Source: a virus | Lineage: Duplodnaviria > Heunggongvirae > Uroviricota > Caudoviricetes | Virus record (IMG/VR): IMGVR_UViG_2695420478_000010 | Reading direction: 5' to 3' (one strand) | Length of the DNA stretch: 20,577 nucleotides | Part shown: positions 1,571 to 8,107 of the stretch, piece by piece | Position numbering within the stretch: position 1 is the stretch's first letter | Layout: the number at the start of each line of letters is the position of its first letter | Translations under genes and position numbers: made by a program | Notes under the pieces: generated by a model | What the model saw: the letters and a program-made list of their open reading frames with translations, nothing else | Told to the model about the DNA's origin: nothing | Database searches by the model: none

Positions 1571-3703
1571 TTAATCTTCATCATCAGGCTGGAACATCAG
1601 CACGTAAAAAACATGCTGCTTACCCCCAATCTTGCCCAGCGCCTTTTTTTTGTATCGGCGATCGCTTCCCTTCTCCAGCATTCCGGCAGCATCCAGGGCA
1701 CGCGCAAAATGCGCCGGATTAAATCCCTTCGCTATCTCACTCTCAAACACGTGCGGGAACGTGTAATAGCGCATCTCGTCATCTTCGTTGCGAATGCTCC
1801 CTTTTCTGTATCCGGCAAGCTCTTTAATCGGTAAATCACGCTCATCTGTATTGGGGTACGGAAGGTAGCGGCTAAACCCAAACGACGACAAAAACGCCTC
1901 AGCCTGTTCAACCATCTGTTTAAATTCCCTGTTACCCGTGCCGAACTCCTTCACCCAGGCATTAAAGTTATGCTGTATCGCGTCGCGGCATTCCTGCACG
2001 ACCCAGCCAGTTACATGACCGGAAAGCACAAGCGCGGCCTCCAGTATGGCGAAACGTTCACCCACGCGGTGGACCTGCTCGCCGTAACTCTCCGGTATCA
2101 GGTTGCGCCACCGTTCGCGGCATTCCCTTACCGTGTCCTTTGCCTCCTGCTGGTGGCCTGCCAGCCATTTAACCCACTCACGACCCGCCGCCCCGTGATT
2201 TGCTGTCCAGGCATCCTTTAACGCGTCAGCATGTTCCTTACCGTTGCTGTATTCGTGAAATTTCGTGGCTTTTTCCATCGGAACGTTAAGCAGTCGGACA
2301 AGCTGCCCCGCCTTAACTTTTATCCCCTCACTTTTGAGGAATGTCTCAACGTCCATTTCTCCGGTGCTGATTGCCACCGTTCGCCAGTGTTTGATCTCCC
2401 TGTTGCCGCCATCCTTCGCCCCCTGCAATTTCCCTGAACCGTTAAACAGCGTATAAGCAGACGTTGACACTTCCCGCGCATTTCCGGCCTGGCCTATCTC
2501 ATCCAGTGGTAAAAGCCCGTCATTATGGGCCTCGGCCTCATTGGCAATACCTAACGCCGTGCCGTACCAGGTCAGCCGCTGCGCGTCCGGCTCTCCCCAT
2601 AAACTTGATGCGATGTTCTGCGTGGTGGTCTTACCTGCCGATGACTGTTCGAAAAGATGCACCCCGAAGCCGTCAGCACCCACAAGGCCAATTAAAGGCG
2701 CTGCCAGTGACGTTGCCACACCCAGTATCATTGAGGCATTACCGCCAGCCAGCCGCGCCACGCTGTCGCGCCAGCCATCCGCCGTGCCCGCCACGGAATA
2801 ACCGTTAATCGCGGCGCTTTTTCCGGTAAACAGGATCGGTTTTTCAGATTCACCAATGATCGAACCGTCCGGCATGATGTACGCGCCAAAATGCCAGCCC
2901 GTTGTTGTGCTTAACTGCCATTCCTCATGGCTTCCGCTTAACTGCATCCAGTCCGCCAGGATTGCCCTGTATTTGCCGTTGGTTGTCACGTTCAGCCCGT
3001 GATCTTTAAGTAACCGCCAGCCGTCACGGTCGCCGATACCACCACACGGGATCGCCATTGTGATGACTTCATGGTTTGCGGTTTTTTTCCAGCGCATCAC
3101 GCGGTAATGCTCTTTACCGATCGTCCCCGTTCCCAGTAGTTCAAGCGGAGAACATAACCACGTCTCAGGCCGGATAATTTCGCCTGACTGCTTATCCACT
3201 TTGGGCGTTACCCAGAAAACACCATCGGCGCGACTTTCAACGCGTGGCTTTAATTCGTCATCGCTATGGCTTCCGGTATCTTTTTTCTTTACCGGAAACT
3301 CAATAACCAGACCATCAGAAAGATTCTGCCGCTCACGGGCCAGATATTCGCGCCAGTTCTCCACCTTCTGACCGTGCATACCCTCAGGATAAAAATTTGC
3401 ATCCTGTACACCAGCCGCCGCCAGCTTTTGACCAATCGCCTTGATCATTACTGGTGCAAGATGTCCGGCCCTGAATATGCGCACGGATTTTCTGCCTTCC
3501 GGCACAATTTGCAGCTTATCCAGTTCTGATAACTGCTGCTCCCCAAGCCACACAGGAGGCACATTATCGCCGGATGCGGGGCCGTCCTGCTCCTGCCACT
3601 GTTTTGCATGTGCCCACGCATCACTACCCGCGAAAATAATCACCTCTGTGTCTTTGTGTTTTATTCCGCGTGGCTGTTTTTTTACGTTCGGTGCCAGTTT
3701 CAT
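1571..3703 (-). CDS. P4-type primase/helicase (alpha-like replication protein, DUF927-type NTPase)
   Basis: 710-aa ORF with AGGGGT RBS; Walker A-like FEQSSAGKTTTQ and Walker B-like LLPLDEIG; start overlaps the upstream ORF stop (ATGA). Confidence 0.88.
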   Translation of the reverse strand: MKLAPNVKKQPRGIKHKDTEVIIFAGSDAWAHAKQWQEQDGPASGDNVPPVWLGEQQLSELDKLQIVPEGRKSVRIFRAGHLAPVMIKAIGQKLAAAGVQDANFYPEGMHGQKVENWREYLARERQNLSDGLVIEFPVKKKDTGSHSDDELKPRVESRADGVFWVTPKVDKQSGEIIRPETWLCSPLELLGTGTIGKEHYRVMRWKKTANHEVITMAIPCGGIGDRDGWRLLKDHGLNVTTNGKYRAILADWMQLSGSHEEWQLSTTTGWHFGAYIMPDGSIIGESEKPILFTGKSAAINGYSVAGTADGWRDSVARLAGGNASMILGVATSLAAPLIGLVGADGFGVHLFEQSSAGKTTTQNIASSLWGEPDAQRLTWYGTALGIANEAEAHNDGLLPLDEIGQAGNAREVSTSAYTLFNGSGKLQGAKDGGNREIKHWRTVAISTGEMDVETFLKSEGIKVKAGQLVRLLNVPMEKATKFHEYSNGKEHADALKDAWTANHGAAGREWVKWLAGHQQEAKDTVRECRERWRNLIPESYGEQVHRVGERFAILEAALVLSGHVTGWVVQECRDAIQHNFNAWVKEFGTGNREFKQMVEQAEAFLSSFGFSRYLPYPNTDERDLPIKELAGYRKGSIRNEDDEMRYYTFPHVFESEIAKGFNPAHFARALDAAGMLEKGSDRRYKKKALGKIGGKQHVFYVLMFQPDDED

Positions 3704-4613: not shown

Positions 4614-4937
4614 GGCACACCCCCTGACGAATACGGGCGGCAAATACAGCAACACAACCTGACGGGCAACGGCTACGCGCTTCGCGTTCCGTCCAGGCGG
4701 TTACGTGGATGATTTGAGATTCTCCGGCACTCAGTGCCAGAAAACGCCACACAAAGGCCGTTTGTGTGTGTACAAGGTGTGGTATATGATTTACAGCAAC
4801 CATAACGGCTCCTAGTTTACGTTGTTGGTTAGAAGCACTGCGAGTGGTAATGACACTTGCGGGGCTTTGCTTTTTTAAGTGCTCTTGTGTTAAGGTGACC
4901 ACCTAACAATAGAAAGGCTAATTCAATAGGTGACCAC

Positions 4938-5129
4938 TTGTCAACAATCAAACGCGATAAAAGCCCTAAAGGGGACGGGCAATCCCCACAATTCAGAATG
5001 CGAATTTCTCCAGAGCTAAAAGAGCAATTCGATAAAGAAGCACAGAGCGACGGCATAAGCCTAGCCAACTGGCTTAAAGAGTTGGGGCGTACTGAACTAA
5101 AGCGGCGCGGTATAGAACCCAAAGGATAA
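4938..5129 (+). CDS. Small ribbon-helix-helix-like protein, putative regulator (TTG start at 4938 or ATG at 4998)
   Basis: AGGTGA RBS 4 nt before the TTG; segment RMRISPELKEQFDKEAQSDGISLANWLKELGR fits an RHH (Arc/CopG-like) pattern; divergent from the primase operon. Confidence 0.4.
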   Translation: MSTIKRDKSPKGDGQSPQFRMRISPELKEQFDKEAQSDGISLANWLKELGRTELKRRGIEPKG

Positions 5130-5171
5130 AAACTATCAGCGCCGTGGTGTGAGGTATTACGGCGCATTGCT

Positions 5172-5360
5172 ATGCAGGACAACACAATGACCGATAAAGA
5201 ATTGACCAAAACATTATCACCGGCACGGAAAAGACGGCGCAGAAAGATAGAGCATGAATCAGAAAGATTCGCGCCATGTGCTTTTGCCCTTGAGCAATTC
5301 CTTAAAGAGTACAGGGAAAAGCGCTCATTGCAGGTATGGCAACGAACTGAACCAGACTGA
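5172..5360 (+). CDS. Possible small basic protein (62 aa), doubtful
   Basis: ORF following the RHH-like ORF; poor RBS; contains a KRRRRK basic patch. Confidence 0.25.
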   Translation: MQDNTMTDKELTKTLSPARKRRRRKIEHESERFAPCAFALEQFLKEYREKRSLQVWQRTEPD

Positions 5361-5424
5361 TAGCATTGCCCACCAGCCAACAACCTGGTATTCTGGATAT
5401 GCTCAAGTTTAGTGTTATGCCACT

Positions 5425-5453
5425 GGCGGCCCTCTGCGGTCGCCTTTGTTTTA
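5425..5453 (+). terminator. Candidate rho-independent terminator for the plus-strand small ORFs
   Basis: GGCGGCC / GGTCGCC stem (one G-U pair), 6-nt loop, then TTTGTTTTA. Confidence 0.35.
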
Positions 5454-5471
5454 TGTGTCATATGCCCCCCT

Positions 5472-5696
5472 TTACGCTGCCTTGCCTGAATTAATACGAT
5501 CCCGGCTTTTAACCCATTCCATAACCTCGGAAAGCAGCCAACCTACTGAACGACCACCCAGATTACGGCGTGACGGGAAATTCCCTTTTTTCTCCAGTTC
5601 GTAGCGTGTAGTGCGGCACACTCCTGTTAACTTACGGCATTCATCCTCACGGATTACGCGATCTGATAGTGATTGAAATTGTGTATTTTGATTCAT
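5472..5696 (-). CDS. alpA: AlpA-family phage transcriptional regulator / excisionase-like HTH protein
   Basis: 74-aa ORF; central region LTGVCRTTRYELEKKGNFP and C-terminal SVGWLLSEVMEWV match the AlpA/Vis (HTH_17) pattern. Confidence 0.7.
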   Translation of the reverse strand: MNQNTQFQSLSDRVIREDECRKLTGVCRTTRYELEKKGNFPSRRNLGGRSVGWLLSEVMEWVKSRDRINSGKAA

Positions 5697-5731
5697 AAAA
5701 AAACGTCCTCGAACGTTGCCGAACGAGGACG
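5697..5731 (-). terminator. Stem-loop plus T-run on the minus strand, directly abutting the alpA start codon
   Basis: CGTCCTCG (5704-5711) pairs with CGAGGACG (5724-5731), 12-nt loop, followed on the minus strand by TTTTTT and then the alpA ATG. Confidence 0.5.
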
Positions 5732-5787
5732 ATTCTAGGCGGTAGTAAAACGCCGTTTGTGTGATATCACACTACCAGCACGTGATA

Positions 5788-6561
5788 TCACTTTTTACGT
5801 TTTTGTTGAGATTCACGCCCCAAATACTTTTGCCATGTCTGCCAATGTGTTTTTGGAAATTCTATCCCTCTGGATGCAGCTATAGAATCAATTAAATCTG
5901 CTATTTTAGGTAATGATTCCGTGTCCAGGTCTACATCACCCATTTCTGGAATAAGTTTAATTAAAGAGTAAATAACCTCATTCCTTTTTGACGATGCTTT
6001 TGGGCTATCTTCTGTTATCTTCGGGAAGTCTCCCGTATTTTTTATATTATCTAAATCACTAGCCATCACACACAAATAGTTAACATCAAATTCATAACCA
6101 CCCTTACAAAAAACATACATGAGATTATCATCACCATACTTATTCGTAAGATGAGAACATTTTATATATTGTCTCATGCTAAATTCGACATCAGCAAAAA
6201 CATATGCCGGAGTATAATAAAACCCTGATAAGCTGCTAACATAATAACATTTGATAGAATTCCCTACAGGACCAATAATGGCACTATCTAAAAATTCAGT
6301 GTCACCAGTTAAACCAACTGTAAAATTACTTCCAAAAACAGCAGATTCATCATTGAAAGGATATTTTATTAATTCTTCCTCATTACAACCATTGATAAAA
6401 TGACATAATGAAAAATTGAATTTTTTAGCATCAATTTTTGGTATATATACAGAAATATTAAGAGCACCTATATATGCGTAATGATAAAGATCTTTTATTG
6501 CACAGCCTAACTTTTCTGCCGCTTCAGGTAACGGATAATAGAGTCTTTTAGGTAATTTCAT
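5788..6561 (-). CDS. Hypothetical protein (257 aa), AT-rich accessory gene translationally coupled to the integrase
   Basis: Long uninterrupted ORF in visibly AT-rich DNA; GAAGGTGG RBS inside the integrase 3' end; ATG overlaps the integrase TGA (ATGA). No motif I can recognise. Confidence 0.7.
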   Translation of the reverse strand: MKLPKRLYYPLPEAAEKLGCAIKDLYHYAYIGALNISVYIPKIDAKKFNFSLCHFINGCNEEELIKYPFNDESAVFGSNFTVGLTGDTEFLDSAIIGPVGNSIKCYYVSSLSGFYYTPAYVFADVEFSMRQYIKCSHLTNKYGDDNLMYVFCKGGYEFDVNYLCVMASDLDNIKNTGDFPKITEDSPKASSKRNEVIYSLIKLIPEMGDVDLDTESLPKIADLIDSIAASRGIEFPKTHWQTWQKYLGRESQQKRKK

Positions 6562-7778
6562 TTGGCCACCTTCAGCATAACAATATTTTCATGATTTCCA
6601 GCCAGCACATCGAGGCGCTCAACCCACAGATTCAGAGCGTCCCGCTTCGCCTGTAAATAGCGTGAATGGTTATAGGTTTTTTGCTGACCGGGCATCTGAT
6701 GCGCTGTGATGTGCTCCACGATATGCGGATCGACACCTAAATCGTTCAGCATCGTTGTAAACGTGTGGCGAAAGTCATGCAGTGACCAATGTTCCTGGTT
6801 AAGCCGCTTATGCGCATTTCGCCCATATTGCGCTACCGTGGTATCTTTTTTCAGTTCTCCGAGCAATAACCCTGTATGCCGGTTCTGATCCACCAGCTTC
6901 TGAATGAACGGCAAAATGCCATCGGGGATTGGCCTGAATATCGTTACCTTCGTTTTGCTGTGCTCTTTTGGCACTGTCCACAACATTTCTTTCAGATCCC
7001 ATTCTTTGATCTCTGAAAGTCTGACCTCTGCAGTTCTGCACCCGAACACAATCAGCAAGCGCATTAACGCGCTGTAGTAAGGCGCGAACACATCACCATC
7101 AATAGCGCGTAAAATTTCCTTTAATTCGCTGTTACTGTGCACCCTCTCGCGAATTTCTGCTCTCTTACCCACATCGCTGACGATCAAATCGTCCAGGGCA
7201 TTACTGAACGCGTAGCGTCTCCTGCGGCAGAACTTTAGCGCCTGTTTGCAGGTTTGCATGACGTGCCCCGCTGCTACTGGTGCTTTTTTTCGTACACGGT
7301 CAAAACATGCGATCCACTGCCTTGTGTCGCATTTATCAAGAGGAATTGCCCCTATATGGCAAATGATGTGCTTATCCATACGTTGCACCAGCTTTATGTA
7401 GTCTTTGCGGTTATCCTTCGCATATTCCTCCAGCCAGTAGTTAATCGCCTCCTTCACCGTAACGGGTTTTAGCGCTTCCTGTACTGTGGCGCACAACTCA
7501 TAACGGGGGTTTTTACCCTCAGCCAGCCATGCCCGGCACTGTGCGCGTTTTTCCCTTGCAGCTTTCAGCGACAATTCAGGGTAAGCCCCCAGCTTTAACC
7601 GCTCTGCGGCAACCTCACGGCCTCCCGTTCGGTACCGGAAATACCAGGTTAATTTTCCGCCTTTTGAGTGTTTAATCTCCAGCCCGCCCCCGTCGGAGTA
7701 AAAACGCTCTTTTTCTGCCTGGACAGCCGCCAATTTTTTTAATGTCGAATCGCTCAGTTTGTTTAGTGCTTTTCCCAC
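6558..7778 (-). CDS. int: Tyrosine site-specific integrase, P4-like family (GTG start)
   Basis: 406-aa ORF with AAGAGGA RBS; N-terminal arm-binding-type region (GGGLEIKHSKGGKLTWYFRYR); C-terminal catalytic region LHDFRHTF ... HSRY. Confidence 0.92.
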   Translation of the reverse strand: MGKALNKLSDSTLKKLAAVQAEKERFYSDGGGLEIKHSKGGKLTWYFRYRTGGREVAAERLKLGAYPELSLKAAREKRAQCRAWLAEGKNPRYELCATVQEALKPVTVKEAINYWLEEYAKDNRKDYIKLVQRMDKHIICHIGAIPLDKCDTRQWIACFDRVRKKAPVAAGHVMQTCKQALKFCRRRRYAFSNALDDLIVSDVGKRAEIRERVHSNSELKEILRAIDGDVFAPYYSALMRLLIVFGCRTAEVRLSEIKEWDLKEMLWTVPKEHSKTKVTIFRPIPDGILPFIQKLVDQNRHTGLLLGELKKDTTVAQYGRNAHKRLNQEHWSLHDFRHTFTTMLNDLGVDPHIVEHITAHQMPGQQKTYNHSRYLQAKRDALNLWVERLDVLAGNHENIVMLKVAK

Positions 7779-7966
7779 TATCAGATCCTCTTTTCAGTCC
7801 TCCAGCCCCAAAAAACTGACCACACAACTGACCACACATTTCGTTGAAGCTCTACGAACAACGACGAACAATAACAAACAAGAAAACGCAACATTCCATT
7901 TAATATCAAATATATATCCAAACAACTACGAACAACCCCGAACCACAAAAAACACTAAATGAGAAA
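7779..7966. repeat. Element end region with direct repeats, candidate integrase arm-type sites (attR side)
   Basis: Perfect tandem AACTGACCACAC x2 (7814-7837); CTACGAACAAC at 7852-7862 and 7926-7936; extra ACGAACA at 7864-7870. Confidence 0.45.
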
Positions 7967-8018
7967 ATACGGGTATTTCTCAGCCTTCACGCAGAAGGGC
8001 ACCCCGAGTCGTTTGGTT
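7967..8018 (-). ncRNA. Truncated thiM TPP riboswitch aptamer (promoter-proximal arm only), interrupted by the element
   Basis: Minus strand reads AACCAAACGACTCGGGGTGCCCTTCTGCGTGAAGGCTGAGAAATACCCGTAT, matching the E. coli thiM aptamer as I recall it; the expected continuation CACCTGATCTGGATAATGCCAGCG is replaced by element sequence. Confidence 0.8.
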
Positions 8019-8041
8019 GCGATGATAAATCGCAGAGGAGG

Positions 8042-8070
8042 ATGGTAATGTCCAGCGCACCCGTTGTAAA
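8042..8070 (-). promoter_or_regulatory. Candidate thiM promoter (-35 TTTACA, 17-bp spacer, -10 TACCAT)
   Basis: Hexamers read on the minus strand just upstream of the riboswitch fragment; assigned by eye only. Confidence 0.3.
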
Positions 8071-8107
8071 CGAGGAAAAACGGCAGTTTTACAATCGCGT
8101 TAATAAA

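Follow-up and report, generated by a model that had tools for sequence, protein, structure and literature searches.

A modular protein encoded between int and alpA in an Escherichia coli phage satellite, a candidate regulator of alpA with co-varying paired palindromes

In Gram-positive phage-inducible chromosomal islands (PICIs), repressors of the Stl/Rpr type sense helper-phage proteins (PMC6092414). The PICIs of Gram-negative bacteria have AlpA as their master activator, but the helper phage turns on alpA by a route that is not known, and no repressor is known for these elements (PMC6092414, PMC11773190); neither these two papers nor PMC10111431 describe a repressor or sensor. In a study that surveyed the PICIs of Gram-negative bacteria, int and alpA, with no gene between them, make up an "integration zone" (PMC10111431). 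Here, we analyze a gene, denoted X, that lies between int and alpA in the 20,577-nucleotide stretch of DNA from IMG/VR record IMGVR_UViG_2695420478_000010 (hereafter, the window). The element is a capsid-forming PICI-type satellite of Escherichia coli, of the kind described in bioRxiv 10.1101/2022.09.08.507074. Loci from other genomes and contigs are denoted L003, L015 and so on.

We favor, with a probability of roughly 55%, the possibility that X is a cassette-borne, modular DNA-binding regulator of alpA with co-evolving paired operators. X occupies a fixed position between int and alpA, and two palindromes that co-vary with its C-terminal module are found at a distance from alpA that is fixed to within ~1 nt; this combination is the hallmark of a regulator that is wired in cis to the master activator. 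The closest functional analog of X appears to be Stl, although X fails to qualify as a member of that group both structurally and architecturally. Like X, the Stl/Rpr proteins of the Staphylococcus aureus pathogenicity islands and other Gram-positive PICIs have genes that adjoin int and share its direction, and they are present before induction; they, too, combine a DNA-binding module with highly divergent modules, which in the Stl proteins bind different helper-phage proteins, and they gate the lytic program of the element (PMC6092414), as X is proposed to do. The start of X lies within the int stop codon, on the same strand, in the window as well as in related loci. Unlike Stl/Rpr, X has no XRE-type helix-turn-helix and no sequence or fold relationship with these proteins (Pfam, NCBIfam and PDB searched). 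Furthermore, int, X, alpA and the primase gene are all on one strand, in contrast to the divergent stl/str pair; the sites linked to X are located downstream of X, at activator-like positions of an apparent alpA promoter without a -35 element; and X is optional among related satellites.

X (positions 5788-6561) is on the minus strand, which the initial sequence-only reading of this DNA had left unstated, and encodes an uncharacterized protein of 257 aa that starts with ATG (WP_000775337.1). It is a real gene because its homologs in E. coli, Salmonella, Klebsiella and Providencia, with 33-66% identity, retain the full-length frame. That reading had held that such a frame was unlikely to arise by chance and that the gene was more AT-rich than its flanks, and both points are borne out. 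At the composition of X, the probability of 257 open codons is ~2e-10, the longest open stretch in 2000 shuffles was 164 codons, and the remaining five frames contain 15-35 stops. The G+C content of X is 0.323 (0.21 at third codon positions) and thus lower than that of int (0.495), of alpA (0.462) and of the window as a whole (0.467). The proposed translational coupling to int holds as well: the ATG of X (6561-6559) and the TGA of int (6560-6558) overlap as ATGA, and a Shine-Dalgarno-like GAAGGTGG (6566-6573, minus strand), as read from the sequence, is located in the 3' end of int, 4 nt upstream of the ATG. The int gene itself (6558-7778, minus strand) encodes a tyrosine integrase of 406 aa (Pfam Arm-DNA-bind_3, E 2e-18; Phage_integrase, E 8e-17) and is annotated as an integrase in near-identical genomes.

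A profile search of 1.84 billion cluster representatives yielded 390 relatives at E ≤ 1e-3, including 54 at E ≤ 1e-30. The names given in databases are "hypothetical" throughout. X was thought to be a gene of unknown function without a catalytic or nucleotide-binding motif, and this assessment stands: there is no family match in Pfam (E ≤ 0.1), NCBIfam, PADLOC or PHROG, catalytic and nucleotide-binding families included, and only faint matches to PADLOC mad1 (27 residues, E 0.015) and phrog_13283 (E 0.02) within the first 30-48 residues. Nothing useful came from searching PDB sequences with profiles of the full-length protein and of its C-terminus, or from a Foldseek comparison with viral structures. 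None of these searches gave a confident match to a housekeeping or structural protein. A peptide-pattern scan of one-genome-per-species contigs likewise drew a blank. We found no paper naming WP_000775337 and came across no account of the family.

The protein consists of three modules (all coordinates on the minus strand). The N-module (codons 1-45, 6427-6561) is a winged helix-turn-helix of the Xis/AlpA/MerR type that is present family-wide, in 152 of the 163 proteins tested (the homologs from the first search together with 150 listed representatives). The middle module (codons 46-178, 6028-6426), the proposed sensor, is beta-rich, hypervariable and recombining, occurs in at least three unrelated forms and has no fold match. 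The C-module (codons 185-257, 5791-6009), the proposed reader of the palindromes, comprises three helices with basic N- and C-terminal arms; it falls into several types by a split profile and has no known fold relatives. Alleles with C-modules that are 94-96% identical share only 16-31% identity in the middle module, and breakpoints of DNA homology coincide with the module borders, at 6577 (3' end of int), 6440 (N-module/middle), 6087/6004 (middle/C-module) and 5728 (the hairpin that precedes alpA). The winged-helix fold is common to the N-module and the AlpA, Xis and MerR proteins (HTH_17, PF12728; Phage_AlpA, PF05930). Compared with these, X lacks a Pfam match at E ≤ 0.1, is 3-4 times longer with two added domains, and has an N-module that does not co-vary with the sole conserved sites found.

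The order int, X, alpA is maintained in every locus of an X homolog for which the context was read, across E. coli, Salmonella, Klebsiella, Providencia, Pantoea and metagenomic satellites of 8-17 kb, in isolates and viral-type contigs alike. In most of these loci, the start of X overlaps the int stop by 4-8 bp, and alpA follows 55-110 bp downstream. The occupant of the slot varies: among related E. coli satellites, the interval shows at least four states, with counts from 5426 complete E. coli genomes for three of them. X family members sharing the same C-module occupy it in 55 genomes, 47 of which have the exact allele of the window; an int-coupled DUF6387 protein is found in 50 (L015, L016); about 317 have 411 bp of non-coding DNA (L011, L012, L017); and L013 encodes an unrelated protein of 309 aa with a faintly similar N-terminus and an inverted repeat of its own. 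The existence of at least four states together with the breakpoints at the module borders vindicates the idea that this is a variable slot, and X is not invariant in related elements.

The DUF6387 proteins (PF19924; L015:3829-4683, Pfam E 4.6e-31; L016:3805-4800, E 1.4e-25) share with X the slot, the ATGA-type coupling to int and the attachment (att) site. They differ in that their sequences are unrelated, X having no match to the DUF6387 profile, in that the paired palindromes are missing, and in that the alpA promoter of their cassette has a recognizable -35 (TTGCAC), a 16-nt spacer and TAAGAT, unlike that of the X cassette. DUF6387 represents a second candidate cargo or regulator in this slot. 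The 309-aa protein (L013:8520-9449), from a satellite at the gcd site, has an N-terminal winged helix weakly similar to that of X (hhalign E 3e-4), and its gene is followed by the inverted repeat CATACTGATA-N13-TATCAGTATG and then by an AlpA-like gene, which may be an analogous cassette of regulator plus site.

Between X and alpA, there are two perfect 10-bp palindromes, 21 bp apart, both with the sequence GTGATATCAC, which occurs in the window only in these two copies even when one mismatch is allowed. The first, O1 (5782-5791), holds the stop codon TGA of X and is centered ~89-90 nt before the alpA ATG; the second, O2 (5761-5770), is extended to the 14-bp GTGTGATATCACAC (5759-5772) and is centered ~68-69 nt before the ATG. 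Both recur in Salmonella, Providencia and several metagenomic lineages despite unalignable surroundings, and degenerate versions are found in Klebsiella. Of the 13 columns that are invariant among 10 aligned lineages with loci of type A, 12 belong to the two sites, and outside the sites the intergenic region can barely be aligned. The spacing of the sites in type-A loci is 20-22 bp, with the O2 center at 65.5-69.5 and the O1 center at 86.5-90.5 nt from the alpA ATG. In type-B loci, the sites, there GGAAnnTTCC palindromes, are found within the 3' coding end of X; even so, their distance to the alpA ATG matches that in type A, with 88.5-89.5 nt for the O1 center and 67.5-68.5 nt for the O2 center.

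The sequence of the palindromes goes with the type of the C-module. The C-module type "KYLGR" is accompanied by GTGAnnTCAC, and the types "VELDYV..SKK" or "WLRGVDLDKK" by GGAAnnTTCC pairs, likewise 21 bp apart, with no GTGAnnTCAC. Swaps among the loci separate the possible determinants. L024 and L026 have similar Int (86% identity) and AlpA (72%), but their C-modules share only 22% identity and their palindromes differ; between the window and L003, the C-modules are 96% identical, the N-modules 36% and the middle modules 16%, and the palindromes are the same. Together with the geometry of the type-B loci, these exchanges show that the sites track the C-module of X and are placed relative to alpA rather than to the end of X. 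From this co-variation, we infer that the C-module may be a DNA-binding domain.

The presumed alpA promoter has a -10-like hexamer, TAGAAT (5732-5737, minus strand), 23 nt after O2, as read from the sequence. At the -35 position, there is ACAAAC, unlike TTGACA, and a consensus promoter scan missed TAGAAT because of the absence of a -35. None of the type-A loci has a -35-like hexamer after O2, and all have a -10-like A/T-rich hexamer 22-23 nt downstream, which abuts the stem of a hairpin. If TAGAAT is the -10 element, O2 is placed near -40.5 and O1 near -61.5, positions that are typical of activators. Phage lambda CI at PRM and class I and class II activators such as CRP bind paired dyads about two helical turns apart, near -41 and -62, at promoters without a -35. 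The resemblance of O1 and O2 to these systems is one of geometry only, without homology and measured from a putative promoter and start, and the palindromes linked to X are shorter than CI or CRP sites, at 10-14 bp.

Under the favored scheme, X would be translated together with Int from the int transcript and so would be present before induction. Two dimers of X would bind O1 and O2 through the C-terminal three-helix domain, and alpA would have a promoter of the activator-dependent type, with a good -10, no -35 and the two sites upstream. Because the geometry of the sites resembles that of a class I plus class II promoter or a PRM-like promoter, signal-gated activation is somewhat favored over the opposite sign, repression through occlusion of the -35 region. 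The middle domain would serve as the input module that senses a helper-phage protein or another signal. The cassette, that is, X with its operators and the promoter, would then set the timing of alpA firing, and a cassette swap would re-target the satellite.

Directly before the alpA ATG, RNA folding predicts a strong hairpin followed by U7 (5697-5731, minus strand; stems 5731-5724/5711-5704, U7 5703-5697), with a stem that is preserved by compensatory changes in all related loci, with or without X. This is presumably the terminator of the int-X transcript, which would probably end there. If transcription began ~7 nt downstream of the -10, the 5' arm of the hairpin would be missing from the transcript, and the hairpin would then stop only int-X transcripts and insulate alpA. 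Within the hairpin (5704-5731), an outer inverted repeat surrounds two pentamers that are repeated directly at a distance of 10 bp. Depending on the lineage, the inner part has one of two orientations, GTTCG..GTTCG (the window, L003, L015) or GAACG..GAACR (L006, L009, L016, L020, L022), so that it looks as if the loop had been flipped. The pentamer matches the GTTCG repeats near att, and hence the hairpin pentamers may be AlpA sites.

The palindromes might instead act as RNA, or as a cruciform, at the 3' end of the int-X message, in the capacity of a stabilizer, a processing site or an attenuator, or as sites for helper-phage or host proteins, with the function of X being unrelated; we consider this unlikely. 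In the predicted fold, O1 is perfectly paired with O2 (-40.2 kcal/mol for the region, z = -6.0), L142 (GTGAAATCAC / GTGATTTCAC) and L024 (9 of 10 inter-site pairs) keep the complementarity, and in a prophage region of Trabulsiella, a similar pair with a T-run comes after an antirepressor-like gene. However, across lineages, the sequence of the sites is strictly conserved rather than co-varying, and L139 and L006 break the inter-site pairing (7/10) yet keep the GTGA/TCAC half-sites. Single sites extend to palindromes of 12-16 bp, flanking positions show symmetry within a site (42 of 90 cases) more often than complementarity between sites (28 of 90), and no U-tract follows O2. The switch in palindrome sequence, moreover, goes with the C-module type of X while AlpA and Int stay similar, and we found no enterobacterial helper-type phage in IMG/VR that has these paired sites.

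Other candidate roles for the palindromes were considered and rejected. AlpA sites are ruled out by L015 and L016, which have the att site, the int family and the hairpin as in the window and near-identical AlpA (94% and ~92% identity, respectively), with DUF6387 in place of X and the palindromes gone. Sites of the N-module winged helix are ruled out because neither the N-module nor its recognition helix sorts by palindrome type, and Int arm sites because the palindromes are ~2 kb from the att junction. Helper-phage operators were rejected given that the pair was found in no enterobacterial phage except one prophage remnant, the Trabulsiella region (L038/L094), where its context resembles a terminator. 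There, GGTGATATCAC-N11-GGTGATATCACC followed by a T-run lies after an ORF6N-type antirepressor-like gene (L038:2869-2899, L094:2165-2195), with no X relative nearby; this pair could be a terminator or a shared operator.

Beyond this remnant, ~38 other IMG/VR matches belong to an unrelated group of 35-60 kb contigs with TGATATCA repeat arrays beside ribbon-helix-helix genes. In L083 (4500-4600) and ~38 similar contigs (L086-L135), divergent ribbon-helix-helix genes enclose an array of five to seven GTGATATCA(T/C) repeats, an unrelated use of the same palindrome, probably as operators or iterons. Most of another 54 matches, in genome contigs, are in Myxococcales and further metagenome-assembled genomes that are unrelated, without any member of the X family close by. 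Given these occurrences in Myxococcales, in gut phage- or plasmid-like contigs and in Trabulsiella, the dual palindrome is not unique to the X family.

Several further observations weigh against X being a regulator that acts on alpA through O1 and O2. The DNA encoding the C-module is physically adjacent to the sites, so that their co-variation could partly reflect linkage. The N-terminal winged helix, the sole recognizable DNA-binding fold in X, does not track the sites. O1 and O2 are mutually complementary and could form a 10-bp RNA stem, and in L142 and L024, this inter-site complementarity is better preserved than the symmetry of the single sites. Finally, X is optional, with type-A family members in 55 of the 5426 genomes compared with the ~317 that have a non-coding slot and the 50 with DUF6387, which means that helper sensing cannot run through X in general.

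The sequence-only reading had singled out X as candidate accessory or defense cargo. This view survives in that the slot is variable and the gene uncharacterized; it lacks specific support for defense, and X is not free cargo, being confined to a fixed slot with sites tied to alpA. In its full form, X would be accessory anti-phage cargo, for example, an abortive infection gene in a satellite hotspot, with the middle domain as sensor or effector and with palindromes that autoregulate or insulate the gene. The variability of the int-alpA slot, the AT-rich DNA with recombining hypervariable modules, the optional presence of X among related satellites and the reported presence of immune systems at the 5' or 3' end of PICIs (PMC11364771) are all compatible with this scenario. 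It is nevertheless improbable. Neither X and its variants nor the other occupants of the slot, including the DUF6387 proteins, match a defense family in PADLOC, and domain and fold searches disclosed no enzymatic, toxin, membrane or nucleotide-binding domain in X. In the loci that were read, the family is seen solely between int and alpA, and the geometry of the sites is fixed to alpA, not to the promoter or the end of X itself.

X could also be a recombination directionality factor or an integrase accessory factor, the Xis-like N-module working with Int to bias integration or excision. In favor of this are the universally conserved ATGA coupling to int and, as a weak hint, the Xis-like nature of the N-module. 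Still, AlpA already fills an Xis-like role (PMC10111431), most related satellites do not have X and excise nonetheless (PMC6092414), repeats near att and upstream of int exist with or without X, and the sole sites that track X are at the alpA promoter, ~2 kb from the att junction, which renders such a function quite unlikely.

The repeats in question include a tandem 12-mer, TGTGTGGTCAGT, in two copies immediately upstream of the int ribosome-binding site (7815-7838), and clusters of TTGTTCGT repeats farther upstream (~7848-7877 and 7917-7943). All related satellites, with or without X, have equivalents of these doubled motifs, comparable to the "doubled motif" described previously (PMC10111431). 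Accordingly, the tandem 12-mers and GTTCG repeats are ruled out as targets of X and probably serve as arm sites of Int or as sites of AlpA.

The satellite is inserted in the thiM thiamine pyrophosphate riboswitch, next to rcnR, with the junction near 7966/7967 (region ~7911-8100): in island-free E. coli genomes, the match begins at 7967, where the riboswitch is annotated, and the interrupted thiM aptamer scores 22.9 bits with Rfam, under the threshold of 54.3. The right flank contains rcnR, rcnA and yeh fimbrial genes and is therefore E. coli chromosome. A promoter-like site of thiM (8070-8042) and the 5' half of the aptamer both lie upstream of int and in its orientation, so that thiamine might affect read-through into int-X. 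The genes of the element, namely, int, X, alpA (5472-5696, 74 aa; Pfam Phage_AlpA, E 3e-16; its activator role is taken from the literature), a DUF4222 gene and a DUF927 primase/helicase (1571-3703, from a Pfam scan), are all on the minus strand. In a near-identical genome, the rest of the element encodes SSB, PerC, major capsid protein, prohead protease, portal, connectors, HNH, TerS and TerL, and ends beside thiM.

The X allele of the window resides in two kinds of satellites, the capsid-forming PICI at thiM/rcnR and a classical 9-kb PICI at cspD, in O157:H7 and other Shiga-toxin-producing strains, which combines identical X (WP_000775337.1) and identical AlpA with a different integrase. The allele is concentrated in the Shiga-toxin-producing lineages O157:H7, O145:H28, O103:H2 and O121, and two O157:H7 genomes have it twice.

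A second variable slot immediately follows alpA and corresponds to the published "Bro zone". In relatives (L003-L005, L009, L019, L024, L026), it is occupied by antirepressor-like genes, namely, pRha, T5orf172/MUG113, AntA, Bro-N/ANT and ORF6N, and in the window (~4829-5461) only by degenerate Icd-like and YlcI-like reading frames. The "dynamic zone" of Gram-negative PICIs encodes Bro-N network proteins, which resemble X in being domain-swapping, DNA-interactive and rapidly shuffled (PMC10111431). They differ from X in location, Bro-N-type genes being found just after alpA in relatives of the element and X upstream of alpA, inside the "integration zone"; in addition, X has no Bro-N, ANT, KilA or ORF6N domain (Pfam).

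The "integration zone" thus contains a swappable cassette, which in ~1% of complete E. coli genomes, mostly Shiga-toxin-producing ones, encodes a modular protein together with co-evolving sites on the presumed alpA promoter. X also offers a candidate for a new DNA-binding domain whose target sequence is known. Its natural specificity variants (GTGAnnTCAC vs GGAAnnTTCC) could be of use in the design of delivery vehicles based on PICIs. A more specific and decidedly more tentative possibility is that X is a helper-phage sensor for a subset of Gram-negative and capsid-forming PICIs, signal-gated, probably an activator, and equipped with a new C-terminal DNA-binding fold for the paired palindromes and a middle domain that recognizes a helper-phage protein, such that cassette exchange would re-program which phages induce the satellite. 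X would then be a functional counterpart of Stl built from entirely different parts. In any case, X provides a concrete and testable handle on the specificity with which helper phages induce alpA.

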